From: an uncultured Candidatus Saccharibacteria bacterium
GTDB lineage: Bacteria > Patescibacteriota > Doudnabacteria > UBA920 > O2-02-FULL-48-8
DNA: 43,576 nucleotides
NCBI GenBank assembly: GCA_964405805.1
Contig: CAYOPE010000004.1
Coordinates: forward strand, 1 to 43,576
Direction: 5' to 3'
Shown here in pieces: positions 10,017 to 43,576 of the stretch. Position numbers and translations under genes: made by a program. The notes under the pieces were generated by a model that was not told the DNA's origin, ran no database searches, and saw only the letters and a program-made list of their open reading frames with translations. Each line of letters starts with the position of its first letter. The first letter of the stretch is position 1.

Positions 10017-10025
10017 TTTTTGAAA

Positions 10026-11624: not shown

Positions 11625-11630
11625 GAAATT

Positions 11631-11882
11631 ATGCATATTTTTAGCGGGCTAATTGGCGTAGCCGTAGGCTTCGTCTTAATTAAATACTCAGTGCCCTTGA
11701 CTGACATGTTTGGAAAAGTAGAATGGGCTGAAAGAAACTTGCGTGGGGGATTAGCCGGCACTTATTCACTATACAAAATAGTGGGAGTGATATTTATCAT
11801 CTTGTCGCTGCTCTATATGTTTGGCTTGATTGGCATAGTACTAGGACCTCTCAGTAACGTATTTGGCGGCGTTAAGCAATAA
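11631..11882 (+). CDS. 83-aa two-TM membrane protein that exactly fills the tRNA-Ile/tRNA-Ala spacer
   Basis: ATG 11631 lies 6 nt after the CCA of tRNA-Ile. The stop TAA (11880-11882) abuts G1 of tRNA-Ala (11883). Two clear hydrophobic helices. Confidence 0.6.
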   Translation: MHIFSGLIGVAVGFVLIKYSVPLTDMFGKVEWAERNLRGGLAGTYSLYKIVGVIFIILSLLYMFGLIGIVLGPLSNVFGGVKQ

Positions 11883-11956
11883 GGGCCTTTAGCATAATGG
11901 TAGTGCGCTCGGTTTGCATCCGAGATGTGGGAGTTCGATTCTCCCAAGGTCCACCA
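11883..11956 (+). tRNA. tRNA-Ala (anticodon UGC), CCA encoded
   Basis: GGGCCTT/AAGGTCC acceptor stem with the G3:U70 alanine identity pair. Anticodon loop TTTGCAT, T-loop TTCGATT. Confidence 0.95.
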
Positions 11957-21825: not shown

Positions 21826-22539
21826 ATGAAGAAATTTTTTGAGATGATAAAGAGCTACGCCTGGGTCTCAGCAGTAATTTTAAGTGTTGCTGCTTTAGGC
21901 TTTAGTCTTTATAATTTAAAGCTTACCAAGCATGCTGCCAATAATGATCAGTATTCAGGAAACCAGAATTCAATCGTAACAGTTGATTATGATAAATTTT
22001 CGGCTGAGCCTTTGCTGCGGGATTTACCAGTTTTGGGGGATAGTAGCGCGCCGCTTACTTTATATGAATTTGCAGATTTTCAGTGTCCATACTGCAAACG
22101 ATTTTTTGATAACACCTTAGCTGGTTTGAAGAGTAGATATATGGACAGCGGCAAGCTACGATTAGCTTTTGTAAACTTGCCTCTGAGAGGACAGGAATCT
22201 AGAGATGCTGCTGAAGCTGCTATGTGCGCGAAAGATCAGGGGCAGTTTTGGCCATATCATGATTTGCTTTATAAAAACCAAGCGCCTGAAGAAAATTCTG
22301 GGGCTCTGAATCCGAAAAAATTCAAAAGCTTTGCGCAAACCTTGAACCTTGATATGAAAGTATTTAATGAATGTTTATCTTCACATAAAAATCTGGACGT
22401 TGTTAACGCCCAGCAGGCTTTGGCCGATAAATATGGAGCGGCAGTGACTCCAACCTTTTTCCTTAAAGATCGTATTATCATTGGTGCTCAGCCACTCGAA
22501 ATATTTATAAAAGCAATCGATGAGCAATTGGCGAAATAA
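21826..22539 (+). CDS. Membrane-anchored DsbA-like thiol:disulfide oxidoreductase
   Basis: TM anchor. Thioredoxin active site FQCPYCKRF. The length and the C-terminal TPTFF motif are typical of DsbA. Confidence 0.85.
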   Translation: MKKFFEMIKSYAWVSAVILSVAALGFSLYNLKLTKHAANNDQYSGNQNSIVTVDYDKFSAEPLLRDLPVLGDSSAPLTLYEFADFQCPYCKRFFDNTLAGLKSRYMDSGKLRLAFVNLPLRGQESRDAAEAAMCAKDQGQFWPYHDLLYKNQAPEENSGALNPKKFKSFAQTLNLDMKVFNECLSSHKNLDVVNAQQALADKYGAAVTPTFFLKDRIIIGAQPLEIFIKAIDEQLAK

Positions 22540-23545
22540 CCAGCCATTTAGGATAGTTTTCCTCTTTATCCTTGCTGCATTGGCAGCAATTTTCGTCATA
22601 AGTAAACACAGAAGCCCGCTGCCGACTAAAATAAATGAATCAGTAGAGCATTTTAAACAGCTTGATTATCAGTCGCAACTAGATTTGGTAAAAAAATCCG
22701 CTGAATCCGATCCAGTGGCTACTTGGCAGTTTGTAAAAGACGCATTTTTGATTAACGGTCAACAAGTCGGCAACGCTCACGAGTTTGCTCATTTAGTCGG
22801 CAACGCGATGTATGTCAAATTTGGCCTAGATGGCATTACTAACTGTGACCAAACTTTTGCTTTTGGCTGCTATCATGGAGTTACCGAGAAATTGTTGGTT
22901 GATCAAGGACCATCAGCGATTATAAAAATTCAGAATCGTTGTACTGAAATTTTCCCGCCAAGCAAAAGTCAAAATTTTACAGGTTGCATTCATGGTATGG
23001 GCCATGGACTATTTACTTATGAGCATTTCAGTGTGAGTAAGGCTTTGCAGGATTGCGACGGACTCGATAATCTTTACAAAACCTACTGCTATGACGGGGT
23101 ATTTATGGAGCATTCGACTGAATTGACTAAAGGAGAATTTAATCCCGCTCATCCGTGGCAATTCTGTACATCACTTGATTCGCGTTATCATTACAATTGC
23201 GCTCGCTACCAGTCCCAGATTTTTTTAGGCCAGTTTGGCGGAGATATTTCTACAGTTTCAAAAAATTGCTCAGCTACAACCGATGAAATCTTAGTGTCGA
23301 CTTGTTTTGAGAGTTTGGGCTACTACATTACTCAGCAGAACCTCGGTAAATTATCATCTATCCTCGATGCTTGCAGTAAAATTTCTGGAGAAGGTAAATA
23401 CCATTGTATTATTGGTTCTACTCGGGAAGTGAAGTTCCAAGCTTATCCAAATTGGCAGACAACAACTGTGGCTCTTTGCAATTCTTTACCAGAAACTTGG
23501 AAAAATACTTGTATAAATAATCAGCAACCTATAAGCCCAATGTAA
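22520..23545 (+). CDS. Membrane-anchored Cys-pair repeat protein, paralog 1
   Basis: N-terminal TM. About 7 reiterations of C-x7-14-C followed by a helix. His motifs AHLVGNAMY, CYHG, CIHGMGHGLF, CYDGVFMEH. Confidence 0.75.
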   Translation: MSNWRNNQPFRIVFLFILAALAAIFVISKHRSPLPTKINESVEHFKQLDYQSQLDLVKKSAESDPVATWQFVKDAFLINGQQVGNAHEFAHLVGNAMYVKFGLDGITNCDQTFAFGCYHGVTEKLLVDQGPSAIIKIQNRCTEIFPPSKSQNFTGCIHGMGHGLFTYEHFSVSKALQDCDGLDNLYKTYCYDGVFMEHSTELTKGEFNPAHPWQFCTSLDSRYHYNCARYQSQIFLGQFGGDISTVSKNCSATTDEILVSTCFESLGYYITQQNLGKLSSILDACSKISGEGKYHCIIGSTREVKFQAYPNWQTTTVALCNSLPETWKNTCINNQQPISPM

Positions 23546-24675
23546 TGAAAGATAATTTACAAAAAAATTGGCCAATAGCTTTAGCACTAATTGTTTTGCT
23601 CCTCGCAGTTATAAAATTTGCCAATGATCGAGGATATTTTCAGCATGTAAAAACTGGCGCTCAAACCGAAACTGCACAGACGATTGAAGATTACTGCAAC
23701 AATCCCACAAATGCTGCGAAAGATTTGGGCAAAGAAAGCTGTTTTTCCAAACAATTTAGGCAACTAGCCAAAGACCAAGGCCCAAAAAATGCTTTTTCAG
23801 TTTTACACGAACTTCAGTCGATTGATCCTAGTACTCGCGGCTGCCATTTGATCGCTCATGGCATTGGCTGGGGCACTTTTGAGCACGATCCGAAGGCTTG
23901 GCAGAATGATATCCAGACTATTGAGCCGTCTTGTAATTATGGCGCTCCCCACGGCATCATTGAAGCATACTTGGAGACGCAGCCAGATCACACTTTAACG
24001 AAAACTGTAATTCCGACTTTGTGCGGGCCCACTCCCAGAGCGGATTGCAATCATATTATTGGTCATCTAATCTTGGTTGAAACTCGGGCCGACGTGCCGA
24101 AGGCATTGGACCTATGTGATGTGTTTGACCAAAATCCCACGCAGCTTGATCACTGCTACACTGGAGTTTTTATGGAATATCAGACTGCGCTCAACTTGAT
24201 TGAACACGGATTTGCTCCGCAAAGCTGGCTAAACTGGCCTGCGAGAGTGCCGGAACTTGAAAAAATGTGTCGCAGCTACACTGATCGCAAGGCTAAAGAT
24301 TGCTGGAAAGAAATTGTCCACGCAGCTTTGGTTAAATTTAACAATGACCCGAAAACGATTTTTGATTTTTGTTCGACAGCGCAGGTTTCGGATGGAGCGA
24401 AAGAATGCCGTCGACACGCCATCGGCATCATGGCAGCAGGAAAACAGTTTGATTTACCGAATCTTAAATCTATGTGCGATTTGGCACAGCCAGATGATTC
24501 TGGATTTAAATCGGATTGTTACGTACAGCTAGCCGCCAGCACGCTTTCCACTGTCCCTGATGAGCAAGACCGGGTGAAGCAGTTTTGTGAAAGTTTGGAT
24601 AGCTCGTATCAGTCTATTTGCTTATCTCAGATAACAAGTTATAATAACTATTCTAGGAGCAGCGGCAATGACTAA
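23545..24675 (+). CDS. Membrane-anchored Cys-pair repeat protein, paralog 2
   Basis: Same architecture: CHLIAHGIGWGTF, CNHIIGHL, CYTGVFMEY. Confidence 0.75.
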   Translation: MKDNLQKNWPIALALIVLLLAVIKFANDRGYFQHVKTGAQTETAQTIEDYCNNPTNAAKDLGKESCFSKQFRQLAKDQGPKNAFSVLHELQSIDPSTRGCHLIAHGIGWGTFEHDPKAWQNDIQTIEPSCNYGAPHGIIEAYLETQPDHTLTKTVIPTLCGPTPRADCNHIIGHLILVETRADVPKALDLCDVFDQNPTQLDHCYTGVFMEYQTALNLIEHGFAPQSWLNWPARVPELEKMCRSYTDRKAKDCWKEIVHAALVKFNNDPKTIFDFCSTAQVSDGAKECRRHAIGIMAAGKQFDLPNLKSMCDLAQPDDSGFKSDCYVQLAASTLSTVPDEQDRVKQFCESLDSSYQSICLSQITSYNNYSRSSGND

Positions 24676-25807
24676 TCTCATCAATCAACTTAAGAAAAAT
24701 TACCAGATCGTGGTTATCACGGTGGCTTTGATCTTCGCGGCAGTACTTGTTTTTTACTCTAAGCCTCATCAGTCGAAGCAGAGCACAAATTCTGAACCTG
24801 CTCAAGAAATTACGCAGATAAAAAATACATCCAACCTTTTAGATCAAGTTAAACTTTACAAACAATTGATTGATCGTGTGGGAGCAGCACAAGCTCAAGA
24901 AGATTTGCTACGTTCCGGATTGCCATTTACAGGACAGACTCATTTACTCAATCACACAGTAGGCGAATATTTGTATAAAACTAAAGGGGTGTCGGGTTTG
25001 TCAGAATGCAAAGAATATTTTTTGGCTTCCTGCTATCACGGATTTATTTTGGACGCCATCGCTGATGGTGGAATTCCGCAGGTCGTGAAAGTCATGCAAG
25101 CGTGTAAGCCGCAGGGAGCGGCAGTTTATCCGCAGTGCGCGCATGCAGTGGGCCATGGATTTTTAACCTACATTGATTATAAAAATATCCCGCAGGCGCT
25201 CGGCATGTGTGAGCAGATGCAGCAGCAAATTTCAGATTTTCCTCTGTTTAACTGTGAGGACGGGGTGTTTATGGAAAACATCTGGGGAGTGCATGATGGC
25301 GAGCCTTCGCCAAACCGCTGGGTAAAGGATTCCGATCATTTTTATCCTTGTGATGACAAGCGAATTGAATCCAAATATTTACTGGCCTGCTGGTCCAACC
25401 AGCCGTCACTCGCTTATCAGCAATTTCATGGGGATATAGCTGCGGTCGGAAAACTTTGCGCTACAGTCACCCCAGCAAATTTAGAAGAAATGTGCTTTAA
25501 TGGTTTGTCGCGACAAATTCATCCGATTGCCGCAGGAGATATCGACAAAACTTTTGAACTTTGTGGTCTTCTCGATGGCAAATGGAAAAATTATTGCATT
25601 GTGATTAATGATCAGGCATCGTTTGCCGTGGGGGATCGATCATTGCCGTTTGCGATTTGTAGTCGGATCGATGCGTCTGATAAAGACCGATGCTTCCAAG
25701 GCTTAATCGGAATGATTAGTGTCTATGCTAAAAGCTCAGATGACCGTACTCAGCTGTGTGCTCAGATTGCAGATGAGACTTGGCGCCAAAGATGTTTAGG
25801 CCGATAA
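24668..25807 (+). CDS. Membrane-anchored Cys-pair repeat protein, paralog 3
   Basis: Same architecture: NHTVGEYLY, CYHGF, CAHAVGHGFLTY, CEDGVFMEN. Confidence 0.75.
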   Translation: MTNLINQLKKNYQIVVITVALIFAAVLVFYSKPHQSKQSTNSEPAQEITQIKNTSNLLDQVKLYKQLIDRVGAAQAQEDLLRSGLPFTGQTHLLNHTVGEYLYKTKGVSGLSECKEYFLASCYHGFILDAIADGGIPQVVKVMQACKPQGAAVYPQCAHAVGHGFLTYIDYKNIPQALGMCEQMQQQISDFPLFNCEDGVFMENIWGVHDGEPSPNRWVKDSDHFYPCDDKRIESKYLLACWSNQPSLAYQQFHGDIAAVGKLCATVTPANLEEMCFNGLSRQIHPIAAGDIDKTFELCGLLDGKWKNYCIVINDQASFAVGDRSLPFAICSRIDASDKDRCFQGLIGMISVYAKSSDDRTQLCAQIADETWRQRCLGR

Positions 25808-25854: not shown

Positions 25855-26346
25855 CTATCTCGTTCCCTGCTTTTCTAAGAGGATGATTGACCAGACTTTG
25901 TTTATGCCATCGCCTTTCATATCACCAACTTTGGTATCTTCTTTATAGTGATAAAGCGGAGTCGTACCATAGGAATACTGATAAGTTCCATCTTTTCTCT
26001 TAATCACGTTTAATCGTTTATACAGATCTCCGGTTAAAGTCTTCAAATCTTTATTGTCATACATAAATGGTGGCCAGTTTTGAGCGCAAGCGTCATAGCA
26101 GCTCGATTGGCCGTTTTTGTCATTGGCTGTAACGTATAGCGTCATACACTTGGAGTCAGTGAGGTAATTTCCAAGCTTCGAAGAAGCTGTCATGATAACT
26201 TCTTTAGTCGCCGAATTTGCACATGGGCTCGCTGTTTGATTATTATTTGTTACTTGAGGGGCAGAACTAGGATGACTGTTTAAAACTAGTATCACTGCGA
26301 TTACTACAGCTATCACCACGATTCCAATAGTGAGATTTTTATTCAT
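25855..26346 (-). CDS. Secreted-repeat protein of the Yx(FWY)xxD-motif lipoprotein family (COG4315-like)
   Basis: N-terminal TM/signal sequence. CYDACAQNWPPF and TPLYHYKEDTKVGDMKGDG match the family signature as I recall it. Confidence 0.75.
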   Translation of the reverse strand: MNKNLTIGIVVIAVVIAVILVLNSHPSSAPQVTNNNQTASPCANSATKEVIMTASSKLGNYLTDSKCMTLYVTANDKNGQSSCYDACAQNWPPFMYDNKDLKTLTGDLYKRLNVIKRKDGTYQYSYGTTPLYHYKEDTKVGDMKGDGINKVWSIILLEKQGTR

Positions 26347-26408: not shown

Positions 26409-26437
26409 TTGACAAATTGGCTTAAAAGGAGTACAAT
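26409..26437 (+). promoter_or_regulatory. Sigma70 promoter TTGACA-17-TACAAT of cassette F
   Basis: Hexamers read directly. Shares the 13-mer AACTATTGACAAA with the promoter at 30681. Confidence 0.6.
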
Positions 26438-26502
26438 TATACGCTACAGTAAAGGCAAGTACCGGGCAATCACGCCCAAAAAAATCGATGGAGGACACGC
26501 AG

Positions 26503-27558
26503 ATGCGCACGCATGAAATCGTGGCTAGTTTCGCATGCGTTGTCCTCTCGGGCAGCGCTTGCGGCGGCTCGTCCACACCGACCCCGCCGACGCAGCAGCC
26601 CACTCTGAGTATTCGTTCCTCAAACCAGCTGTACTTCGCTGGCGAGAGCTATCGGCTGAACGCGATGTTCCAGCAACCTGGACAAACTGCCCAGGACGTC
26701 ACCGTCCAAGCGACGTGGTCATCATCAGACCCGTCGGTGGCCACAGTCAACGCTGGCATAGTGAATGTCCTGGTGGACGGCAAGACCGCGGACATCACTG
26801 TCAAGTACCAAGACGTCACGTCGAAGGTGACTGTCTCGACCGGCTGGTTTCTGATCAAGGCCGACCCAGGAGTGTCTGCTACTGATCAAGACATCGTCCG
26901 TGATGGGGCAAACGTGGCGATTGACTACTACGCCTCAAAGTTGGGCTGGGTTCCTGAAAAGCAGATTACGATCACGCTGACGACAGCAAGTGGTAGTACT
27001 ACGGCCACTTCTGCTCCTTCAGCGCTGACCGTCTTCGTTACTGGTTCGGAGTGGCTGGTAACTGCAGCTGAGCTCAAGCGGAAGATCATAGGACATGAGC
27101 TCTTTCACGTGTTGCAGTACACCATCGCCTGGCTTGGCAATCACACGATACTTGACGACTGGCTCGTGGAGGGCAGCGCTGAGTACATGGGCTACCGAGC
27201 TGAAGTGATTGATCGCGGGATACAGGGAGCAGATCAGACCCGCGGTTGCCATCAGTTCTCGGTGGACAATTCGTCGACCCTGGTCACGCTGCCGTTGTCG
27301 AAGCTGGAAAACCAAGGCGACTTCCAGGCTGCTGCACACGCGAGCCCAGCCTATAGCCTGGCGTACCTCGCGGCTGAGCGAGCAGCCCAAGACAGAGGTC
27401 TTGGCTCGTTTATCGACTACGGTCGGTCGGCTGCCACGGCATCGCTCGCTGTCTCGTTTCAGAATGGGTTCGGCAAGCCGCTGAGCCAGTTCTACGACGA
27501 GTTCGAGACTTACCGGCGAACATGGGTTCATTCGCCGAACTATACCTGCCTGCACTGA
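26503..27558 (+). CDS. GC-rich cassette F: exported Ig-like (Big_2-type) plus HExxH zinc metalloprotease
   Basis: SD GGAGGA. Lipoprotein-like signal VVLSGSAC. Ig-like segment SSDPSVATVNAGIVNVLVDGKTADITVKY. Zinc site IIGHELFHVLQ plus EGSAEY. Confidence 0.75.
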   Translation: MRTHEIVASFACVVLSGSACGGSSTPTPPTQQPTLSIRSSNQLYFAGESYRLNAMFQQPGQTAQDVTVQATWSSSDPSVATVNAGIVNVLVDGKTADITVKYQDVTSKVTVSTGWFLIKADPGVSATDQDIVRDGANVAIDYYASKLGWVPEKQITITLTTASGSTTATSAPSALTVFVTGSEWLVTAAELKRKIIGHELFHVLQYTIAWLGNHTILDDWLVEGSAEYMGYRAEVIDRGIQGADQTRGCHQFSVDNSSTLVTLPLSKLENQGDFQAAAHASPAYSLAYLAAERAAQDRGLGSFIDYGRSAATASLAVSFQNGFGKPLSQFYDEFETYRRTWVHSPNYTCLH

Positions 27559-27582
27559 GAGGTAGGGTCTGCACGTTTCTCT

Positions 27583-27625
27583 GGGCGCGATGACTGGGAT
27601 TCCCGTCGTCGCGCTCTTTGTTTTT
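27583..27625 (+). terminator. 12-bp stem hairpin plus TTTGTTTTT
   Basis: GGGCGCGATGAC...GTCGTCGCGCTC. Confidence 0.7.
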
Positions 27626-27664: not shown

Positions 27665-28225
27665 ATGCGAAACGAAAATCAAAAGTTTATCATCATAATT
27701 ATCGTAAGTTTATTTTTAGTTATAGGAGTTGTAGCTTCGGTTTACTATTTCTCAGATAAAAATATTCCCCAACCAGAGCAGGAAAACGCTAAGCTAGTTT
27801 CTAAAGCTCCCACTGCCAATCCTAAACCTGATAATTTATCTGAGACTACAGCCAAGCTTTATGTTGCTAATAGCATTACGGTTCCTCCAAAAATAGTTGA
27901 TGCGAAAACAATTGAGAAATCAGTTCTACCGATTGATCTCATAAATCTTATTCCTGCGGATGCTTATTATACGAAGGTAGAAAGTATAAAATTTGCAGAT
28001 AATAAACTAGGATTTAAAATCCTATACCAAATGCCTAGTCTGATTTATCTCAATCAAACTTTTTATGCAGCATTTAGTACGAAAGGTTGGAAAATAGTCA
28101 AAGCCGCTCATACTAGTATAGTCGGTTTGATGTTTATGCAAAAAGATAAATTCGATACTTGGGTCGAAGAATCAGTGGTCGACGAAAAAAATATCAATGT
28201 CATTCTTACGATTGTTTCGAAATAA
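27665..28225 (+). CDS. TM-anchored accessory protein, family P, paralog 1
   Basis: N-terminal TM. The shared block LPxDLxxLI...x-Y-x-x-G-[FY]-x-[IV] also occurs in 28886-29386 and 31600-32151. Confidence 0.7.
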   Translation: MRNENQKFIIIIIVSLFLVIGVVASVYYFSDKNIPQPEQENAKLVSKAPTANPKPDNLSETTAKLYVANSITVPPKIVDAKTIEKSVLPIDLINLIPADAYYTKVESIKFADNKLGFKILYQMPSLIYLNQTFYAAFSTKGWKIVKAAHTSIVGLMFMQKDKFDTWVEESVVDEKNINVILTIVSK

Positions 28226-28889
28226 TTTAAATATTATCAGTTTAGTTATCAGCGTCATAGCTTTGGGTTTAGTTTTGTATCAGTATCAATCAATTCAGCA
28301 CAGCAAACCGGTTGTGGCAAAATCAGAAGCTTTTGACGCAGAAGGAATCGTACAAAAAATAAATCCGCAGGCTCCGATCATGGGGGACGAAACAGCACCA
28401 GTGACTGTGGTCGAGCTAGGGGATTTTCAGTGCCAATTTTGTAAAATGTTTTATGATCGATCTTTTAAAAATTTAATTGAAAAATATTCAGCAGAAGGAA
28501 AAATTAAGTTTGTGTTTGTGGATTATCCGTTTTTAGGCGAAGAATCGAAGCTTGCTGCTGAAGGGGGGATGTGCGCACAAGACCAAAATCAATTTTGGTC
28601 ATACTATAAATATTTATACGAGCATCAAGGACTGAAAAATCAGGGTAATTTTCGAACCAGTCAATTGATGAAATTTGGTTCTAAACTCCCTCTTAACCAA
28701 GATAAATTTTCTGATTGCTTAAAAAAACATATTCACGCGCAAGATGTCGGAAAGATTGTCAATGTAGAAACTAGCTTGGCGATTGGCGGTACTCCCACTT
28801 TTTATATCAATAAAGATAAGTACCGAGGAGCAAAAAGTTTGGCTTACTATAAAGATATCATTGATAAGCTACTGACTTTACATAAATGA
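28197..28889 (+). CDS. Second membrane-anchored DsbA-like oxidoreductase
   Basis: TM anchor and active site FQCQFCKMF. Paralog of 21826-22539. Confidence 0.85.
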   Translation: MSFLRLFRNNLNIISLVISVIALGLVLYQYQSIQHSKPVVAKSEAFDAEGIVQKINPQAPIMGDETAPVTVVELGDFQCQFCKMFYDRSFKNLIEKYSAEGKIKFVFVDYPFLGEESKLAAEGGMCAQDQNQFWSYYKYLYEHQGLKNQGNFRTSQLMKFGSKLPLNQDKFSDCLKKHIHAQDVGKIVNVETSLAIGGTPTFYINKDKYRGAKSLAYYKDIIDKLLTLHK

Positions 28890-29386
28890 AGATTCAGAAT
28901 AAAATAACTCTAACAATACTTTTCATTGCAGTTATTTTTTTAGTGTTTTCTTTTGACCAAAAATCTCAAAATTCTAGAAATCAGCAAGTTAAAGGATCGC
29001 AGTATTCCATCCTCCAGTCAGAAAAAATAAAAATTCCGGAAGCCGAAACAACTACCAAAAGTGCTCTTCCCAAAGACCTTGAGTCGCTAATATTTTCAAA
29101 CCCTCAGAATCTCTCAATAAACCATATCAACTATCAAAATGGATTGACTGGATATCGGGTAAGTATGAATTTAGATTTTCCATTATACTCAGCTTTTAAT
29201 GCTTACTCGAAAATGTATTTTGATGAAAGACATTGGAAAAAAATTAATGCTTTGTTTTCCCCGGATACTGAAAAAATGGGATTCATAGAAATGGAAAATA
29301 AAAATTATCAAGTACAGGTCGAATTGCACCGACTCGACACAGACAATACTGGAATTTTAATTAAGATTATACAGCCACAGTTATGA
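28886..29386 (+). CDS. TM-anchored accessory protein, family P, paralog 2
   Basis: SALPKDLESLIF...INYQNGLTGYRVSM. ATGA overlaps the downstream adhesin gene. Confidence 0.7.
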   Translation: MKIQNKITLTILFIAVIFLVFSFDQKSQNSRNQQVKGSQYSILQSEKIKIPEAETTTKSALPKDLESLIFSNPQNLSINHINYQNGLTGYRVSMNLDFPLYSAFNAYSKMYFDERHWKKINALFSPDTEKMGFIEMENKNYQVQVELHRLDTDNTGILIKIIQPQL

Positions 29387-30672
29387 AAAGCCTTCTTTTG
29401 ATCTTACTAGTGATAACCTTCTGTATATTTTTGCCAGGTATAAACAAGCTCCATGCTGATTACTGTGGTGAACACTTGACTTGTGGGCACAACCTTGATA
29501 TTGATTATTGTGTTGATAATGGACCAACCTGGTGTCCTGGCGGTTGCGTGCCTGCCGGCTCAGTGAGCTGTGATGCCTATGGCCAGTCAGAATTTTGTGG
29601 AGATATTTTTAACTGCAGCAATTATAATATTGAATACTTTTATGAATATGAATACCAATATCCCTATCAATACGAGTATCAGTATGAATACCAGTACCAG
29701 TATCAATACCCTTACCAATATCAGTACCAGTACCCGTATCAATATGAATACCAATACCCAACCCCATATTCTTATCAGTACCAGTATGAATACCAGTATC
29801 AGTACCAATATCAGTATCAGTACCAGACCCCGTATTCTTACCAGTATCAATACCAATACCAATACCAGTATCAGTATCAGTACCAGACCCCAATTATTCC
29901 ACCAACTGCTCCTACACTTAATGCAGTAGACAACACCACTTGCGCTCAGCTTCACCTGACGTGGGTAGATAATTCTTCAAATGAAGACGGCTTTACAGTT
30001 TGGCGCTCCACGACTTCTGGTTCAGGTTTCAGCAATATTTCTGGTAATCTTCCGGCCAATACTACGACTTATACAGACACACCCCCTTCCACTGGTGTTA
30101 CGTATTTTTATATCGTTAAAGCGTTTATAAATTATCCTCCGTTGTCAGAGTCTTCTTCCAACGAGCAGAGTGCCATGAACCTAGCTTGTAGCGCTTCTAT
30201 GGCAAATACCAATATCGTCGCGCTGAAAGTTAACGGTGTTAATTTTACAACCACCACCACTGTGAAGAATGGTGACACCGTCACCTACCAAATCACCCTA
30301 GTCAACTCAGGTCCTTCCAATGCTACCATCAACTACATCTGTGACTTCCCATCATCAAACCTGACAAACTTAAGAAACCTCACTGTCTCAGGCCCTGGTT
30401 CTAGCAATGGGGGAATCACAGCTAACTCACCAACCTGTAACAATTCCTACAAATTCAATGTCTCCGGCAACAAGAATCTAGCCAACAACTGGGTTATTAC
30501 CTTTGATGGTACTGTCTCAACTGCTATCACAGACATCCAGGAAGTCATGAAAGACAGCATCAGAATCAACTTCTCTGATCCTACCAACAAAGACTGGTCT
30601 GGCTCTGCCCCGAACATCCTTATTAACTCTACCAAAGGCAAGACCCCCAACTTCAGAGAGGTCAGTCCATGA
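29383..30672 (+). CDS. Exported adhesin-like protein 1: signal peptide, 10-Cys knot, (Y-x)n tract, FN3, DUF11-like beta-sandwich
   Basis: About 84 residues have Tyr at every second position. FN3 signature LTWVDNSSNEDGFTVWRS...YFYIVKAF. GDTVTYQITLVNSGPSNAT is typical of DUF11-type repeats. Confidence 0.85.
   Translation: MKSLLLILLVITFCIFLPGINKLHADYCGEHLTCGHNLDIDYCVDNGPTWCPGGCVPAGSVSCDAYGQSEFCGDIFNCSNYNIEYFYEYEYQYPYQYEYQYEYQYQYQYPYQYQYQYPYQYEYQYPTPYSYQYQYEYQYQYQYQYQYQTPYSYQYQYQYQYQYQYQYQTPIIPPTAPTLNAVDNTTCAQLHLTWVDNSSNEDGFTVWRSTTSGSGFSNISGNLPANTTTYTDTPPSTGVTYFYIVKAFINYPPLSESSSNEQSAMNLACSASMANTNIVALKVNGVNFTTTTTVKNGDTVTYQITLVNSGPSNATINYICDFPSSNLTNLRNLTVSGPGSSNGGITANSPTCNNSYKFNVSGNKNLANNWVITFDGTVSTAITDIQEVMKDSIRINFSDPTNKDWSGSAPNILINSTKGKTPNFREVSP
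29623..29874 (+). repeat. Degenerate hexanucleotide (TAY-CAR/GAR/CCN) tandem array encoding (YQ/YE/YP)n
   Basis: Codon usage varies between units (TAT/TAC, CAA/CAG), so the repeat is conserved at the protein level rather than being a simple slippage array. Confidence 0.9.
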
Positions 30673-30673
30673 A
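30274..30673 (+). repeat. 400-bp perfect direct repeat, copy 1 (adhesin 3' end)
   Basis: Identical to 32987-33386 by direct reading. Includes the stop and the first nucleotides of a pilin start (ATGAA). Confidence 0.9.
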
Positions 30674-30680
30674 GTAACTA

Positions 30681-30709
30681 TTGACAAAAATTCTTTTTTG
30701 AAGTAAAAT
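30681..30709 (+). promoter_or_regulatory. Sigma70 promoter TTGACA-17-TAAAAT of cassette G
   Basis: Read directly. Inverted repeat ATTCCTA...TAGGAAT (30708-30734) overlaps the -10 and +1 positions. Confidence 0.6.
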
Positions 30710-30758
30710 TCCTAGTTACAATGTAGTTAGGAATTTTGGCTTTTCAAGGAGGAATGCC

Positions 30759-31478
30759 ATGAAGTACATCGCGACGATCGCAGTTGCGTTGTTTCTGGCT
30801 ACCTCCGCGGTGGCCAAAGACAAAGCGCCGACGTATAGTGAAGACGAAATCGCCAAGTACGAAGCAGCGGTTGATGTTGCGGCGATTCGGATTTCACAGG
30901 GAACGGATACTCTGGCAGCGGCGAAGCGAGCCGACGTAGAGGCTGTTGCCGAGAAGTATCGACGCGGTTTCCACCTCGTCGAAGAGACCAACCCGCTTTA
31001 CCGACTGGTCTCAGAGCAGTATGGAAAGCTCGCCGGTTCTCGTCGAGTGCGACTGCATTTGTTTCGCGGTCCGAGCTTGCCTGGAGTCGCGATCGGGGAT
31101 GACGTCTATCTCCACTACGACTCCATACACAAGCTGGCGACCTTCGCTGGCGGTCCGAACCTGATTTTGGCAACTCTGGCTCATGAACTGGGCCATGGGT
31201 CTGCTGACTTTACGCGACTGCTCGTCATTGACGGGCTTGCTCTACCAGCGGACCTGAAAGAAAGTCTGCGGCTGCGACTCGAGATGCGAGCTGACGAGGA
31301 AGCAGCGCGGCTGATGCAGGTATCGAACTTGTCGACTGACGGACTGACACAGAACCTTCGGGCTCTGGACTCAGGCACTGACAACGACGAGGACGGCCGG
31401 CTCAAGCAGCGCATTGCAAACCTCGAGATGTTTGCCAAGATGCCGCGCGTCGCTTCTGGCACACAATACCAACGCTAG
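30759..31478 (+). CDS. GC-rich cassette G: secreted HExxH zinc metalloprotease (M48-like)
   Basis: SD AAGGAGG. Signal peptide MKYIATIAVALFLATSAVA. Zinc site LAHELGHG with downstream EMRADEEA. Confidence 0.75.
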   Translation: MKYIATIAVALFLATSAVAKDKAPTYSEDEIAKYEAAVDVAAIRISQGTDTLAAAKRADVEAVAEKYRRGFHLVEETNPLYRLVSEQYGKLAGSRRVRLHLFRGPSLPGVAIGDDVYLHYDSIHKLATFAGGPNLILATLAHELGHGSADFTRLLVIDGLALPADLKESLRLRLEMRADEEAARLMQVSNLSTDGLTQNLRALDSGTDNDEDGRLKQRIANLEMFAKMPRVASGTQYQR

Positions 31479-31498
31479 CGCACTGGCGTTGGTTCCGA

Positions 31499-31557
31499 GA
31501 CCCGAGAGACTGACAGCTCATTACTGTCTTCACTCGGGTCTTCGCTTTGTCTTTTTT
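31499..31557 (+). terminator. Long hairpin plus T-run
   Basis: GACCCGAG..GACAG-loop-CTGTC..CTCGGGTC followed by TTCGCTTTGTCTTTTTT. Confidence 0.7.
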
Positions 31558-31599
31558 ATAAAATATGGCATAATACAGATAGAATCTTACTTATTTTTC

Positions 31600-32151
31600 A
31601 TGGGAAATCAAAACAAATTTTACTATTTAACTGTGAGTTTAGTAGCTTTGGTTACTTTGCTGGTCATAGGCTTAGTGAGCTACTTTATGGTTTTTAGGAC
31701 TGACTCAAATTCAAAGATTCAGACAAAGCCTAGTGAAAAAACCAACCAAGCTTCAGTGCCTGCTGATTTCGAGAATTTGCTAAATAATTCTAAAATTTAT
31801 GTGCCAGAAGTTAAGCAGAGTCAGGACATAAAAATTTCAGACCTGCCTACTAATTTATCAACCTTGCTTTTAAAGGACGCTCAAACAAGTGTCATAAAAA
31901 AAGTGACATATAATGATTTGAGTCAAGGTTTTCTTATCATTTACACAGTTGGATCTACTGTTGCAAATAGTTTTCAAAGCTTATCTTATCTCGTAGAAAA
32001 ATTACCGTTTAATCCTTATAACGGAGCGGGCACCACGGACAAAGGTATTATCGAAGCCGGAGACAATGCGTATCATTATCAAATTTTACTAAAAGCCATG
32101 GCTGATAAGAGCGAAATTAAGATAACAGCCATCAAATACTTAAGTGACTAG
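31600..32151 (+). CDS. TM-anchored accessory protein, family P, paralog 3
   Basis: ATG 31600 follows promoter TGGCATAAT (31565). SDLPTNLSTLLL...VTYNDLSQGFLIIY. Confidence 0.7.
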   Translation: MGNQNKFYYLTVSLVALVTLLVIGLVSYFMVFRTDSNSKIQTKPSEKTNQASVPADFENLLNNSKIYVPEVKQSQDIKISDLPTNLSTLLLKDAQTSVIKKVTYNDLSQGFLIIYTVGSTVANSFQSLSYLVEKLPFNPYNGAGTTDKGIIEAGDNAYHYQILLKAMADKSEIKITAIKYLSD

Positions 32152-33385
32152 ACAAAAGATAAAAATAATTATATTTTTTCTGCTTACCTTAAGCCTCGGT
32201 TTGATTTTAGGTTTAGCCCAAAATAGCAATGCCCAGAGTTGTGCCGGCGGCACTGGTGGTGGCTGTGGTGGCTCTGATGCAGGCTCTTGTATCGGTTCAC
32301 CGCTGTCATGCATTGGCGCTGCTTGCCATGTGGAGTCCCAGCCTGTTAGTTGTTCTGGTAATGGTGATACTTGGCAGTGCCCAAACGATGTCTGCGTGTT
32401 TGATTATGAATATCCTTACCCATACCAGTATCCGTATCCTTATCAGTACGAGTATGAGTATCAATATCCTTATCCCTATCAATACGAGTACCAATACCAA
32501 TACCAGTATCAGTACCAATATCCGTACCAATACGAATACCAATATCAAACCCCGTACTCTTATCAGTATCAGTACCAATACCAATACCAGTATCAGTACG
32601 AGTATGAAACGCCACCTCCACCGCCGCCAAATGCTCCAACGCTGAATAGTGTCGGAAACGCTACTTGTGCCCAGCTGAACCTGAGTTGGACTGACAATTC
32701 GTCAGATGAAAAAGGTTTTACTGTTTGGCGCTCCACTACTTCTGGTTCTGGTTTTAGCCAGATTAATTCAGTCGGTCCAAACATCACAACTTTCGTGGAC
32801 ACGCCTCCGAGTGTGGACACGTCGTATTTCTATGTGGTCAAAGCGTTTAATGATTTTGGTGAAAGCGCTTCAAACGAACAAAGTGCACTTAATCGGAAGT
32901 GTGAAGCCTCCATGGCCAACACCAGAGTTAGATTGATTAAAGTTAATGGTGTGAATTTCTCATCAGTGGATACTATTAAAAATTCCGACACCGTCACCTA
33001 CCAAATCACCCTAGTCAACTCAGGTCCTTCCAATGCTACCATCAACTACATCTGTGACTTCCCATCATCAAACCTGACAAACTTAAGAAACCTCACTGTC
33101 TCAGGCCCTGGTTCTAGCAATGGGGGAATCACAGCTAACTCACCAACCTGTAACAATTCCTACAAATTCAATGTCTCCGGCAACAAGAATCTAGCCAACA
33201 ACTGGGTTATTACCTTTGATGGTACTGTCTCAACTGCTATCACAGACATCCAGGAAGTCATGAAAGACAGCATCAGAATCAACTTCTCTGATCCTACCAA
33301 CAAAGACTGGTCTGGCTCTGCCCCGAACATCCTTATTAACTCTACCAAAGGCAAGACCCCCAACTTCAGAGAGGTCAGTCCATGA
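32144..33385 (+). CDS. Exported adhesin-like protein 2 (GTG start), same architecture as 29383-30672
   Basis: Signal peptide, 10 Cys, a (Y-x)n tract of about 65 residues, poly-Pro, FN3, and a C-terminal domain that is nucleotide-identical to paralog 1. Confidence 0.85.
   Translation: MTRQKIKIIIFFLLTLSLGLILGLAQNSNAQSCAGGTGGGCGGSDAGSCIGSPLSCIGAACHVESQPVSCSGNGDTWQCPNDVCVFDYEYPYPYQYPYPYQYEYEYQYPYPYQYEYQYQYQYQYQYPYQYEYQYQTPYSYQYQYQYQYQYQYEYETPPPPPPNAPTLNSVGNATCAQLNLSWTDNSSDEKGFTVWRSTTSGSGFSQINSVGPNITTFVDTPPSVDTSYFYVVKAFNDFGESASNEQSALNRKCEASMANTRVRLIKVNGVNFSSVDTIKNSDTVTYQITLVNSGPSNATINYICDFPSSNLTNLRNLTVSGPGSSNGGITANSPTCNNSYKFNVSGNKNLANNWVITFDGTVSTAITDIQEVMKDSIRINFSDPTNKDWSGSAPNILINSTKGKTPNFREVSP
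32405..32599 (+). repeat. Hexanucleotide array encoding (YP/YQ/YE)n
   Basis: Same type of array as 29623-29874. Confidence 0.9.
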
Positions 33386-33386
33386 A
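32987..33386 (+). repeat. 400-bp perfect direct repeat, copy 2
   Basis: Identical to 30274-30673. Confidence 0.9.
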
Positions 33387-34008
33387 ACAGCAGAGAGGAC
33401 AAAGCTTAATCGAGACCATTGTCGCAATCTTTATCCTAACCTCATCTTTAATCGGAGGTTTGGGTTTAACTATCTACGCTTTTTCTGGTTCGACCAATTC
33501 ACAAAACGAGTTCCTAGCATCTAACCTGGCTCGCGAAGGGGTAGAAGTCATCCGGACGATCCGCGATTCGAGCTGGCTTTCAGGTGATAAGCAGGGAGGC
33601 GCTGCTGATTTACAAACTTGTGCTGATATTGGTAGTAAGCTCTGTTATCCACAAGCCTACAGTGGCATTAATGCTGGAAATCAGAGAATCGTGTTTGATA
33701 CACTGACCAGTTCTTGGGCGTTAGTCAGTAATCCAGTAAATTATAATTTGTATTTGCAAGCAGATGGTACGTATTCTAGTGTCACGAATGGTGCTTCTGT
33801 CTTTGGGCGCATGATTAACATCAGTTTTAACTCCAACGCTCCGTATACGAATCAAAACTCTAATCAAGAAATGATTGTTAAGTCAGTAGTTGCTTGGCGA
33901 GGGAAAGGATGTACTAGTTTTACTTCTACAGACAATCTGTTAACTCTTTCCACGCCCTGCAAGACAGTGGTCGAAGAGCACATGACTAACTGGAAGGATT
34001 ATAAATGA
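33382..34008 (+). CDS. Minor pilin / pseudopilin
   Basis: MKQQRG|QSLIETIVAIFILTSSL (Glu at +5). ATGA overlaps the adhesin 2 stop. Confidence 0.8.
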   Translation: MKQQRGQSLIETIVAIFILTSSLIGGLGLTIYAFSGSTNSQNEFLASNLAREGVEVIRTIRDSSWLSGDKQGGAADLQTCADIGSKLCYPQAYSGINAGNQRIVFDTLTSSWALVSNPVNYNLYLQADGTYSSVTNGASVFGRMINISFNSNAPYTNQNSNQEMIVKSVVAWRGKGCTSFTSTDNLLTLSTPCKTVVEEHMTNWKDYK

Positions 34009-34565
34009 CACGTATCACGTATCGCGGGTCACGTCTCAAGGGGTTTACCCTGATTGAAGCAGTGGTGGCTACTGCAGTATTTGCTTTTACTATTGTTTCG
34101 ATTTTAGGAGTTTACGTAGCTACTACCAAACTTGATCGGAAAAGCAGAGCGGAAAGAGCAGTTTCCCAAAACGGCCGTTTCATCATGGAGTTTCTAGCCA
34201 AAGAAATCCGCAATGGGACGATAGATTACTCTAGCTACCCGGGCGGTACGGTTTCCACCACTACAGATTTGTTTTTAGAAAATCAAGCCAATGAACTTGA
34301 GCATCTTTTTAAAAGTGGCAATGATATGATTTTAAACAAAGGTTCAAATGTCAACATGAATTCGGCTTCTGTAAAAGTGACGAAGTTGGATTTTTATATC
34401 AAACCAGTGGGAAATCCTTTCACTGTCGCGAAAACTTTTAACGAACAGCCGCACGTCACTGTGATTTTACAGCTGCAATCAAACTATGGAACTCGGACGA
34501 ATGATATAGCTACTCTTAATTTAGAAGATACTTTTGCCGTTCGAATTTATCCAAGTCGAGAATAA
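34005..34565 (+). CDS. Minor pilin / pseudopilin
   Basis: RLKG|FTLIEAVVATAVFAF. Confidence 0.8.
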   Translation: MTRITYRGSRLKGFTLIEAVVATAVFAFTIVSILGVYVATTKLDRKSRAERAVSQNGRFIMEFLAKEIRNGTIDYSSYPGGTVSTTTDLFLENQANELEHLFKSGNDMILNKGSNVNMNSASVKVTKLDFYIKPVGNPFTVAKTFNEQPHVTVILQLQSNYGTRTNDIATLNLEDTFAVRIYPSRE

Positions 34566-34566
34566 C

Positions 34567-35331
34567 ATGAAAAAACAAGCAGGTGTTACGTTGATAATAT
34601 CAATTCTAATAATGTCAGCTGTGGCTCTGGCTAGTGTCGCTGTGGCCGCGTTTGCTCTTTCAGAAATTCGTTCATCCAGAGCAGTCGCGTTAACTGAACC
34701 TGCGATTTCTGCTTCAGAAACAGCCGGGGAGCAAGGATTGTGGGCGATTAAACGCGACGTCTCGCTTACCAATTGTAATTCTGGTCAGACCACAGTTAGC
34801 TTAAGCAATGGGGCAATAGTTAATTCCTGTAAAACTTATTCTAAAGCCACGATTAACCTTAAAGGTGGCGTGCCTTTTGTCTTTTTCTTATACGACCCAA
34901 ATGACCCCAATGGCAATCTCTGCATGAATCAGACTTATGATTCAGGACAGCATAGCGGGTGTGCAGGAGCAGCTATCTATACCAGCATTACGATTGTCCA
35001 CAAGGCTGGAACTTCTGATGTTTCTGTAACCACTCGTGATTTAAATGGTAATGCCTTTGCAGGCTCTGATATTACTGTAACTAGAAATTCTACAGGGACT
35101 GTAACGATTCCAGATCCGATACCGGCCACTCCGCCGACTAATGACGAACGATTAAAAGTAACTCTGTCTTCAAATACTGATACAACTATAGAGTTAAATG
35201 CTTTGCCTTTGGGACTACCAAACTATCCGACTGTGAGCGCAGGTGGCTGTGCAGCAAAAACCGCTCTTTCAGATTGTACTTCAGGAGCGGAGATATTCAA
35301 CCGTAGATTAAATATTACAGTGCCTCAGTAG
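34567..35331 (+). CDS. PilX-like minor pilin / pilus-associated protein
   Basis: MKKQAGVTLIISILIMSAVALASVAV resembles the PilX N-terminal domain (no Glu at +5). Confidence 0.65.
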   Translation: MKKQAGVTLIISILIMSAVALASVAVAAFALSEIRSSRAVALTEPAISASETAGEQGLWAIKRDVSLTNCNSGQTTVSLSNGAIVNSCKTYSKATINLKGGVPFVFFLYDPNDPNGNLCMNQTYDSGQHSGCAGAAIYTSITIVHKAGTSDVSVTTRDLNGNAFAGSDITVTRNSTGTVTIPDPIPATPPTNDERLKVTLSSNTDTTIELNALPLGLPNYPTVSAGGCAAKTALSDCTSGAEIFNRRLNITVPQ

Positions 35332-39264: not shown

Positions 39265-40002
39265 ATGAAGGTTCAGGCAGTTGGCAGTTTCGCAGATCCA
39301 ATCGACCTGATTCGATCGCAGGACCAGAAATGGCAGCGTATGCGTGAAGCCATGGATTGGCTAACGAAGAGCCGATCGGTCCTCGAAGGTGGTCACTTCA
39401 GGTTTGGCACAGACGAGAAAGAACAACACGGACGTATCTACGTAAACGCCCGTCGGTTGTTCAACATGGCATTCGCGAGCAAGTGGTTGATTACGGCGTT
39501 GGCGGATGTCCTACCCACGGAGGTCCGTGAGCAAACGGAGATCGTAGCCGGTCCGACCACATGCGGCATCATCATCGCGCGTGATCTGGCGGATCACCTG
39601 TCGTCGAAACTCAAAGAAGGCCAACCGGATGTCGAAGCCATCTTTTTCGGTCGCGATTGGAACGACATCTATACAATTCACGAGTCCGATGCCGACCGAT
39701 TGCTTGTGTGGGAACCTGTTGATCCAAACAAGCCTGATGGAGAGCAGAAAGTCGTGCGTGGTCGCCGCGTTCTTTTAGTCGATGACGTTCGACACCGTGG
39801 GGTGACGTTTGAAGCTTGCTTCCAGCTGATCAAACGGGCTGGAGGCGAAGTCATCGCCACCGCTCAGCTCATCGATCGCGGCATGGCTACACTGCCGATT
39901 CCAGTCCCGAACTACTTCGTCGGCCAGGTCGATCGTGATCGGTTGTACAAACCGAAGGACTGCCCGATGTGTCGAGTCGGTGAGCCCATCACGAAGTTCT
40001 GA
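39265..40002 (+). CDS. GC-rich island: type I phosphoribosyltransferase (OPRT-like)
   Basis: SD GAAGGAGG. PRPP loop RVLLVDDVRHRGVTF. EGGHFRFG near the N-terminus. C-terminal CPMCRVGEP. Confidence 0.75.
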   Translation: MKVQAVGSFADPIDLIRSQDQKWQRMREAMDWLTKSRSVLEGGHFRFGTDEKEQHGRIYVNARRLFNMAFASKWLITALADVLPTEVREQTEIVAGPTTCGIIIARDLADHLSSKLKEGQPDVEAIFFGRDWNDIYTIHESDADRLLVWEPVDPNKPDGEQKVVRGRRVLLVDDVRHRGVTFEACFQLIKRAGGEVIATAQLIDRGMATLPIPVPNYFVGQVDRDRLYKPKDCPMCRVGEPITKF

Positions 40003-41178: not shown

Positions 41179-41649
41179 GTGGCAAATACCAAGCCGGGCG
41201 GCACGCTCGGCAAAATGTCCGCCAAGAAGAGGCGACAGGTTCAGTCCAAAGGTGGGCAGGCGTCGCATGAAAAAGGAGTGGCTCCCGAATTCAGCGCGGG
41301 TCGTCAAGGCTCTGGCCGCAAGGCAGCACTCAGGAGCTGGGAGCTGTGCCCGAAGCGTGATCTACCACCACTATCAAGCGACCGGGCGCGCGAGCTTGCT
41401 TTCAGTCGCTGGAAGGAAGCGTATCAGCACCTGCTTTTGCCCGTGACGACACCTCAGCTACTCATACCAATCGCCGAGTGCGCGCAGTTGCTGCGGGTGA
41501 ACAAGATTACTTTCAGGCGATGGCGGAGGCTCGGACTGTTTCGCGGGGAAGTGACCAAGGGGCAAAAGAAATACTTGCCCTACGAACGACTGGAGATGGG
41601 GCGAAGAGCCGTGGTCCGTTTTTACAAGATCAAACCGGCTTCGGTCTAG
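41179..41649 (+). CDS. GC-rich island: KGG-motif N-terminus plus HTH_17-like C-terminus (GTG start)
   Basis: SD AAGGGGG. SKGGQASHEKG resembles the stress-protein KGG repeat. IPIAECAQLLRVNKITFRRWRRLGLF is HTH-like. Confidence 0.55.
   Translation: MANTKPGGTLGKMSAKKRRQVQSKGGQASHEKGVAPEFSAGRQGSGRKAALRSWELCPKRDLPPLSSDRARELAFSRWKEAYQHLLLPVTTPQLLIPIAECAQLLRVNKITFRRWRRLGLFRGEVTKGQKKYLPYERLEMGRRAVVRFYKIKPASV

Positions 41650-42285: not shown

Positions 42286-43576
<1,291 letters not shown>

Follow-up and report, generated by a model that had tools for sequence, protein, structure and literature searches.

A gene neighbourhood linking membrane-anchored P proteins, DsbA, candidate secreted adhesins and minor pilins in a Candidatus Saccharibacteria genome

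How are host recognition and attachment encoded in the Candidate Phyla Radiation (CPR, or Patescibacteria), where they are largely unknown and where type IV pili have been implicated experimentally only in Saccharibacteria, with a pilin fusion as the candidate adhesin (PMC11623550)? The question is raised by a stretch of 43,576 nucleotides (the window) from an uncultured Candidatus Saccharibacteria bacterium (GTDB lineage Doudnabacteria; contig CAYOPE010000004.1 of assembly GCA_964405805.1). Its positions 27665–35331 had been predicted to hold a pilus-tip adhesin system, made of Cys-rich adhesins that depend on DsbA, a family of membrane proteins (P proteins) that serve them as chaperones or anchors, and three minor pilins that display them. 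Here we describe the anatomy of these genes, their family relationships and folds, the neighbourhoods that are conserved in other genomes and a tract of gene conversion. As a whole, the original prediction finds partial support, which comes from conserved gene neighbourhoods. Comparative sequence analysis establishes three conserved links, which join DsbA to P, P to a Cys-dense secreted cargo, and a cargo ending in an FN3 domain, an Ig-like domain and a short tail to the operon of the three pilins (pil1–pil3). We favour, tentatively and at a little less than an even chance, a reading in which the head of the adhesin is matured by P and DsbA and the adhesin docks on the minor-pilin complex by way of its conserved C-terminal module.

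All of the open reading frames (ORFs) of the predicted module are present, in the order and at the coordinates proposed, and all are on the plus strand: P1 (27665–28225), DsbA2 (28197–28889), P2 (28886–29386), adhesin 1 (29383–30672), P3 (31600–32151), adhesin 2 (32144–33385), pil1 (33382–34008), pil2 (34005–34565) and pil3 (34567–35331). The junctions are tight. Read from the sequence, ATGA overlaps join DsbA2 to P2, P2 to adhesin 1, adhesin 2 to pil1 and pil1 to pil2; P1 and DsbA2 overlap by 29 nt, and pil2 and pil3 are separated by 1 nt. The start/stop overlaps that had been proposed are thus found at P2/adhesin 1 and adhesin 2/pil1, and P3 and adhesin 2 overlap by 8 nt (GTGACTAG) rather than by GTGA. 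Stop-codon recoding as the source of the ATGA junctions is ruled out, as the long genes of the window are intact under code 11. Because two high-GC units (26409–27625 and 30681–31560) interrupt the region, the native genes would form two operons, P1–DsbA2–P2–adhesin 1 and P3–adhesin 2–pil1–pil2–pil3.

P1, P2 and P3 are true but old paralogs, as had been proposed: pairwise BLASTP E-values are 6e-9, 6e-8 and 1e-5, and pairwise identity is 20%–26% (24% for P2 versus P3). Word-indexed searches with P alignments gave almost only self matches, and the family was retrieved by an exhaustive HMMER search, in which a profile of the three proteins found 324 relatives or clusters at E ≤ 1e-3 among 1.84 billion representatives. 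The best 150 of these 324 are 121–225 amino acids (aa) long and nearly all are matched over most of their length. Family members are single-pass membrane proteins of ~180 aa. The motif block noted in the window is shared by the wider family; in a 50-member alignment at least 90% of the sequences keep the Pro of LPxxL, and all have the Gly of G[YF]. None of the 50 members matched a relevant Pfam family, DUF1795 included, and the P profile found nothing among PDB sequences beyond noise in the transmembrane (TM) helix. A PepSY-like or protease-inhibitor identity was considered and dropped (the P2 match, E = 0.032, is not significant and is not reproduced by the other 49 members), and matches to FliL are confined to the TM helix. 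The P family is undescribed, and no database describes it. P proteins have no Cys, and so are not redox partners of DsbA.

The AlphaFold model of P1 is confident (pLDDT, the predicted local distance difference test, 93.9) and has a TM helix at residues 4–32, a low-confidence linker and a compact alpha/beta domain at 58–185. Foldseek searches with this model return DcrB (6e8a), TiME, the PknH sensor domain, 3lyd and SciW/Eag, all weakly (probability 0.82–0.98); the best, DcrB, has a probability of 0.98 but E = 0.078 and TM-scores of 0.37/0.44, with TM-scores across the matches of 0.30–0.44. We read these weak matches, tentatively, as Mog1/PsbP-like sandwiches. Several Mog1/PsbP-like proteins are envelope proteins, and Eag/SciW are dedicated chaperones of secreted effectors. 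Members of this group (DcrB/DUF1795, TiME, the PknH sensor and Eag/SciW) are the nearest folds to the P ectodomain, but P shows no sequence similarity to them, is anchored by an N-terminal TM helix and carries LPxxL...G[YF] motifs of its own.

The second component, DsbA2, is a membrane-anchored DsbA-like thiol-disulfide oxidoreductase with a CQFC active site. It matches Thioredoxin_4 (E = 3.5e-27) and DSBA (E = 3.9e-7) and has an N-terminal TM segment; thioredoxin fold, CxxC and export or anchoring, the marks of a DsbA-like protein, are all found in it.

The third component is a pair of secreted proteins to which we give the putative label of adhesin from their domain architecture. Adhesin 1 (429 aa, with 13 Cys and 51 Tyr) and adhesin 2 (413 aa, with a GTG start, 12 Cys and 38 Tyr) both begin with a Sec-type signal peptide, followed by a head, Tyr repeats, an FN3 domain, an Ig-like sandwich and a tail that is identical in the two (KGKTPNFREVSP, ending in adhesin 1 as ...TPNFREVSP). 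The Cys-dense heads have 8–9 Cys per ~50 residues, nine of them in residues 28–78 of adhesin 1, and differ between the two proteins so far that they give no alignment. The repeats are YQ/YE/YP dipeptides over 90–100 residues, encoded by imperfect arrays with a 6-nt period (DNA ~29640–29890, about residues 80–170, in adhesin 1; DNA ~32405–32605 in adhesin 2). An AlphaFold model of adhesin 2 residues 164–413, of moderate quality and built from a 4-sequence alignment, has an FN3 domain at pLDDT ~90, a second sandwich mostly at 73–87 and last 20 residues below 50; the fold of adhesin 1 is taken from this model by way of 82% identity. Foldseek matches it to tandem FN3/Ig structures (FN3 E = 5e-5; 3n1f_C, TM-score 0.80). 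The FN3 assignment thus stands on structure; Pfam gave no fn3 for the window adhesins, and homologues carry PF00041. TIGR01451 scores 23.0 against a cut-off of 24, and one homologue from the Joint Genome Institute is named as a TIGR01451-family protein. No sorting signal (LPXTG, PEP-CTERM, GlyGly-CTERM and so on) was found in the adhesin family, where nothing follows the F-x-E-V-[AS]-P end. The exact sequences of adhesins 1 and 2 are absent from a collection of 15 billion proteins in which neighbours on the same contig are present; probably these repeat-rich genes were called differently by the depositor, or not at all.

The two adhesin modules had been described as a duplication. They are not a recent tandem duplication, since P2 and P3 are so far diverged and the heads cannot be aligned, yet their 3′ ends are nearly the same. 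The C-terminal 250 residues of the adhesins are 82%–83% identical and the last 137 aa are identical. At the DNA level the genes are 50%–75% identical up to ~30265 in adhesin 1 and 32978 in adhesin 2, and then become near-identical over ~410 nt (30265–30675, encoding the Ig-like domain and tail of adhesin 1, and 32978–33388 in adhesin 2, both on the plus strand). This block holds one mismatch, near its start; every column is identical from 30333, with the mismatch in the preceding 60. Identity stops 2 nt past the stop codon, at CCATGAA. Near-identity of the last ~410 nt amid 50%–75% identity indicates an old duplication plus a recent gene-conversion tract, as judged from the alignment. The conversion tract brought pilin-start bases (CCATGAA) behind adhesin 1, where they leave a vestigial ATG-AAG-TAA mini-ORF (30673–30683); this mini-ORF stands where adhesin 2 has the pil1 start and suggests that the copy fused to pil1 was probably the donor. 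A target of a diversity-generating retroelement is ruled out for the repeat, which has one mismatch and no adenine-specific pattern, and no reverse transcriptase was found among the scanned window ORFs of at least 100 aa.

Relatives of the adhesins were sought in several collections. A word-indexed search gave two full-length relatives, P0004, which has the architecture of the window adhesins including the YQ repeats, and P0005, which has another N-terminal part with a faint PA14 match. A scan of metagenomes with the Ig-tail region gave 12 loci (these and the other loci compared carry L-numbers below), and a scan of genome contigs with the adhesin C-terminus gave mostly generic FN3 matches, with a sole full-length relative in a Doudnabacteria metagenome-assembled genome (L024). 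Over 12 aligned sequences the C-terminal module is 33%–56% identical to adhesin 2, and all 12 end in P-x-F-x-E-[VI]-x-P, in which F, E and the last P never vary. Among 3117 ORFs (1.4 Mb), this terminal pattern occurs only in the adhesin family, in one spurious 101-aa ORF and in the cargo of L098; L098 was reached independently, through P, and its cargo is of PKD type and ends in PNWKEVLPH. The heads of the family are diverse, some being Cys-dense with YQ, GYYQ, YGTQ or EYP/SYP repeats, others (proteins of 957 and 1040 aa) having few Cys and no Tyr repeats. This FN3-Ig-tail family is likewise undescribed. In L024 (276–1001; 699–3178 / 8178–10747) the P-adhesin module occurs twice, around genes that resemble insertion sequences and toxin-antitoxin genes; its adhesin has 725 aa, with ~250 residues of GYYQ/GYYE, the two copies differ only at the penultimate residue (...EEIAP versus ...EEISP), and an in-frame TAA splits the TM part from the domain in P copy 1.

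Co-occurrence in other genomes had been proposed as the check on the predicted links, and the links do recur. The wiring of P to DsbA and cargo, and a dedicated helper role for P, are supported by the conserved neighbourhood. P is followed by a secreted protein that contains Cys, mostly at high density, in 8 of the 12 P-gene contexts that are informative (window P2 and P3, L024, L084, L086, L098, L102 and L103/L104). The P and cargo genes share an ATGA overlap in L084 and L098, a high-GC cassette lies between them in L086, and in L102 just 48 residues of the protein 3′ of P lie on the contig. P adjoins DsbA in 6 of the 12 (window P1 and P2, L084, L097, L101 and probably L100); the gene that follows window P1 is DsbA2 and not an adhesin. 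On 1.24 Mb of control loci selected only by FN3 similarity, the P profile matches only two ORFs, both directly 5′ of the L024 adhesins. Three tail-bearing adhesins (L085B, L088 and L094) have no P upstream and other small TM proteins in its place. These small proteins of L085, L088 and L094 were considered as P proteins and are not counted, as their profile match is confined to the TM segment and their hhalign probability is low.

The link to the minor pilins, which had been claimed for the module as a whole, is seen in 4 of about 13 copies of the FN3-Ig-tail gene, which stand directly 5′ of pil1–pil3 orthologues; the other nine are not next to pilins. The four are window adhesin 2, L092/L093/L094 (one genome, with a gap of ~380 nt), L095 (where a small four-helix-bundle gene separates the adhesin from pil1) and L096 (with an 8-nt gap), and their heads are unrelated. 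The pil1 orthologues are 56%–64% identical (L092, L095 and L096) and those of pil2 50%–55% (L093 and L096); pil3 has orthologues too. In L094 the genes upstream of the adhesin also run as in the window (pilins, PilD, a pilin and, on the minus strand, Lipoprotein_15), but the adhesin that occupies the slot is another one. Small four-helix-bundle genes, which we take to be of the "ELIVWQK..." type found in 23S rRNA intervening sequences, also lie beside adhesins in L088/L089 (6352–6753 and 17749–18102); the one in L095 is at 999–1370.

The three pilin-like genes themselves can be assigned with differing firmness. In the class III signal of a type IV pilin, a short basic leader with Gly as its last residue precedes a hydrophobic helix that has Glu at +5; a GspK-type cap subunit lacks this Glu5. 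The PilV-like pil1 has the class III signal RG/QSLIE and passes the N_methyl (PF07963) cut-off (21.7 bits versus 21.2), with TIGR02523 PilV at E = 1.6e-5, below its cut-off. The signal of pil2 is KG/FTLIE; its N_methyl score of 20.9 bits is just below the cut-off, and it has weak matches to ComGE, ComGF, GspI and GspJ. The third, pil3 (254 aa, AG/VTLII, no Glu5), has a hydrophobic pilin-like N-terminus, and an orthologous N-terminus follows pil2 in L093; from this sequence we infer a candidate GspK/PilX-type cap subunit. PDB sequence searches with pil1–pil3 gave nothing useful.

In the model that we favour, the adhesin would be exported by Sec, and its Cys-dense head would be oxidized by DsbA with the help of the cognate membrane-anchored P, whose outward-facing alpha/beta domain may act as a head-specific holdase or maturation factor. 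The FN3-Ig module and its flexible PxFxEVxP-COOH tail would then dock on a pil1–pil2–pil3 priming complex, and the pilus tip would take the adhesin with it through the wall, with the Tyr-rich repeat as stalk and the variable head as binding end. We infer all of the protein-protein contacts, the pilus location and the adhesive function in this scheme. Docking at the tip is favoured because adhesin 2 is translationally coupled into the minor-pilin operon, because four moderately diverged genomes have the adhesin in the slot 5′ of pil1 with heads that are swapped between them, and because the family ends in a short invariant disordered peptide such as TcpF and CofJ use on tip minor pilins. The disordered tail follows two folded sandwiches in the adhesin 2 model, and the module is flanked by pilus machinery and a further DsbA (DsbA1) on one side and by the three pilin-like genes on the other. 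The homogenized C-termini of the two adhesins, together with their diverged P partners and heads, are consistent with a single partner for both C-termini and a separate one for each head. A folding role for P and DsbA is favoured by the orphan P genes that lie beside DsbA and not beside adhesins.

Several results weigh against this model. Nine of the ~13 adhesin copies are not followed by pilins (adhesin 1, L002, both L024 copies, both L085 copies, L086, L087 and L088–91), and in L087 and L089 the adhesin precedes the same LysM gene with no pilins between them. The genomes of the four pilin-adjacent cases are moderately related to one another, and shared ancestry explains part of their synteny. 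The fold matches of P are weak (E = 0.07–0.4, TM-score at most 0.44), pil3 has no match in Pfam, NCBIfam or PDB, and the DUF11 (PF01345) scores of the adhesins, 19.1 and 17.2 bits, are below the cut-off of 24.6. Finally, all five P-linked cargoes with a known C-terminus carry the tail, which fits P as a receptor of the tail equally well.

This last point leads to the strongest alternative, which we consider a serious rival though less probable than docking at the tip: the adhesin would be a cell-surface protein anchored by P, independent of the pilus, with the P domain binding the tail, the stalk spanning the wall or S-layer and the head exposed, and the place beside pilus genes would reflect shared regulation or a shared variable region. 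The P-then-adhesin link is both deeper and more frequent than the pilin link (the 8 of 12 contexts include Doudnabacteria), usually with stop and start codons that overlap or nearly abut; the majority of adhesin copies lie away from pilin genes. The tail occurs even on the P-linked cargo of L098, with its different C-terminal domain, and in each family conservation is highest in short motifs, LPxxL...G[YF] for P and PxFxEVxP for the cargo. Nonetheless, P2 and P3 have diverged to 24% identity while the C-termini that they would bind are identical, and the tail-bearing adhesins of L085B, L088 and L094 do without P upstream. Orphan P genes beside DsbA without an adhesin (window P1, L097 and L101) point to folding and not to anchoring, and the translational coupling of adhesin 2 is to low-abundance minor pilins.

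A less probable alternative, and in our judgment an unlikely one, is that the adhesin is the substrate of a type II-related secretion system, in which a pseudopilus tip of pil1–pil3 pushes it through the wall and releases it, the tail being the secretion signal, so that the protein is freed or re-bound to the surface with no stable mounting at a tip. TcpF takes exactly this route, by means of a terminal "T4bP secretion signal" (PMC9565799, PMC10120004), and the tail here is disordered. Adhesin 2 is fused into an operon with GspI/J/K-type pilins: the weak GspI, GspJ, ComGE and ComGF matches of pil2 and the lack of Glu5 in pil3 are in keeping with this. The locus, however, also has PilT and several PilA-type major pilins and so is a true retractile pilus system, and the modular order of head, stalk and dock suggests a tethered protein and not a free one.

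The wider surroundings place the module in a type IV pilus super-locus of 25 kb, of which the P/adhesin segment forms a variable "adhesin island." The super-locus opens with two PilA-type pilins (starting at 10476 and 11023), which are followed by PilM, PilN, PilO, PilB, a response regulator, PilT and PilC, and then by three further pilins with PilD, DsbA1 (family match E = 6e-33) and three paralogous TM proteins with 14–16 Cys each. Its right part consists of Lipoprotein_15 (minus strand), the P/adhesin/pil1–pil3 region, a LysM gene (minus strand) and ligA. DsbA1 overlaps the first of the three paralogs, which are in tandem and N-terminally anchored (341, 376 and 379 aa; 21826–25807) and have no Pfam match; the same family is found in triplicate beside the L086 adhesin. 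DsbA1 and these paralogs represent a second case of DsbA coupled to Cys-rich cargo. Lipoprotein_15 (PF03640), on the opposite strand, is a conserved left neighbour of the DsbA/P/adhesin segment in four loci, all on the minus strand (window 25855–26346, L084 172–675, L094 4707–5198 and L097 2–322). The super-locus sits between the rRNA genes of the window, so that an unlinked rRNA "operon" surrounds all of it: a partial 16S rRNA at the left end (1–1676) holds a group I intron (665–1096), tRNA-Ile(GAT) and tRNA-Ala(TGC) lie at 11548–11956, ~10 kb past the 16S, and the 5′ part of the 23S rRNA at the right end (42286–43576) is on the same strand as the 16S, 40.6 kb away. Together with the small genes and the relatives described above, this arrangement marks the genome as one of the CPR.

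The two high-GC cassettes, both on the plus strand, are built alike, with a sigma-70 promoter that matches at 11 of 12 positions and a hairpin followed by a T-run. Cassette 1 (26409–27625; GC 0.58, and GC at third codon positions (GC3) 0.68 versus 0.27–0.47 in neighbouring genes) has a TTGACA-17-TACAAT promoter and a 356-aa ORF (26488–27558) with a lipoprotein signal, an HExxH motif and weak matches to Big_2 and flagellinolysin; it probably flanks the module and is not part of it. Cassette 2 (30681–31560) has a TTGACA-17-TAAAAT promoter, AGGAGG, a secreted ORF of 239 aa (30759–31478) and a terminator hairpin. Its ORF had been called a protease, and the HELGH motif is there, without a family match; PDB sequence searches with the two HExxH ORFs gave nothing useful. 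Single-gene islands of high GC (GC3 0.53–0.84 versus 0.27–0.47) lie beside adhesin genes in several independent CPR contigs (L001 1–600 and 1896–2251; L084 1470–2060; L085 1700–2400; L086 1195–2050; L088 3800–6400; L094 3823–4621). The unit is a near-consensus TTGACA-17-TAnAAT promoter and an ORF with a lipoprotein or secretion signal, with a consensus AGGAGG in most; several have a GTTAC(G)...(C)GTAAC palindrome at the leader start, and they end in a hairpin and T-run wherever the contig covers downstream sequence. They are reminiscent of phage "morons" or of captured foreign genes that share a native promoter/operator. The view that the cassettes are one protein family was rejected, as they have only signal peptides in common, and specificity for adhesin loci is weakened by the ~10 islands that are scattered across the window. 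About 10 of 50 window ORFs are such islands (GC3 0.57–0.68, core genes 0.27–0.47), the others lying at 3655–4080, 5375–5695, 5800–6414 (minus strand), 6463–6879 (minus strand), 8386–8985, 10097–10402, 39265–40002 and 41179–41649, and the genome looks like a mosaic. That the segment from Lipoprotein_15 to the minor pilins is merely a recombination hot spot, gathering surface-protein genes and foreign cassettes without shared function, would account for its high variability between related loci, its high-GC cassettes, IS-like (insertion-sequence-like) and four-helix-bundle genes, and the single-gene islands across the window, but is very improbable, since specific pairs recur in distant loci, start/stop overlaps persist despite the inserted cassettes, and P matches are absent from the 1.24 Mb of control loci except directly 5′ of the Doudnabacteria adhesins.

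If the tip-docking model is followed further, the PxFxEVxP-COOH tail could be an unrecognized docking or secretion signal for the type IV pili of monoderm-like CPR bacteria that loads interchangeable Cys/Tyr-rich heads onto a common pil1–pil3 tip, with P and DsbA as a dedicated, extracytoplasmic oxidative-folding chaperone system for these heads; we regard this extension as speculative, and it is perhaps less likely than not by a fair distance. Were it true, host range in episymbiotic bacteria would be set by a modular "plug-in adhesin" pathway. The locus points to a modular arrangement other than the pilin fusion of Saccharibacteria, with a conserved putative docking module and tail, heads that vary freely between genomes, a helper family and a paired DsbA. 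In metagenomes, the P and FN3-Ig-tail families could be used to mark loci of host interaction. No publication connecting DsbA with pilins in CPR, or tyrosine-rich proteins with CPR pili, came up in full-text literature searches.

Among known systems, PilY1/PilC are type IVa tip-associated adhesins, encoded in the fimU-pilVWXY1E minor-pilin operon. The window adhesins resemble them as large Sec-exported non-pilin proteins that share an operon with minor pilins and have a conserved C-terminal and a variable N-terminal binding part. They differ in that a Pfam scan finds no beta-propeller, vWA or PilC domain (PF05567) in the window adhesins, whose C-terminus is FN3, Ig-like and tail; the adhesin gene here lies 5′ of the pilins, a P membrane partner and DsbA accompany it, and the CPR host is monoderm-like. 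In Myxococcus work as cited in PMC11623550, PilY1 is proposed to join the complex of minor pilins and is described as priming pilus polymerization with them. For CPR type IV pili, it has been proposed that a tip component whose gene accompanies those of PilV/W-type minor pilins binds the host, and the PilX1/PilX2 minor pilins of Saccharibacteria, with lectin-like or beta-propeller domains, have been proposed as tip adhesins (PMC11623550). There the binding domain is fused to the pilin, whereas in the window the putative binding protein is encoded apart from the pilins, is secreted by Sec and has a helper to itself, and neither a P-like partner nor a Cys/Tyr-rich architecture is described for PilX1/PilX2 in that paper. 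TcpF and CofJ, secreted proteins of type IVb pili, dock on the tip minor pilins TcpB and CofB via a flexible terminal peptide (PMC9565799, PMC6048534, PMC10120004). Like the window adhesins they are operon-encoded and Sec-exported with a short terminal signal, and the window tail is invariant and predicted to be disordered. Their signal, in contrast, is N-terminal and binds a homotrimer of one large minor pilin, while the window motif is C-terminal and would meet three different small minor pilins; there is no homology in sequence or fold. MSCRAMM-type surface adhesins of Gram-positive bacteria share the order of signal peptide, head, repeat stalk, beta-sandwiches and short conserved C-terminal motif, but the window adhesins have no LPXTG, hydrophobic segment or basic tail, end in ...EVSP and repeat Tyr dipeptides instead of Ser-Asp. 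By analogy with these systems, the product of the locus would seem to be an adhesin that is associated with the pilus without being a pilin itself, and that brings a new accessory family and a new candidate for a docking signal.

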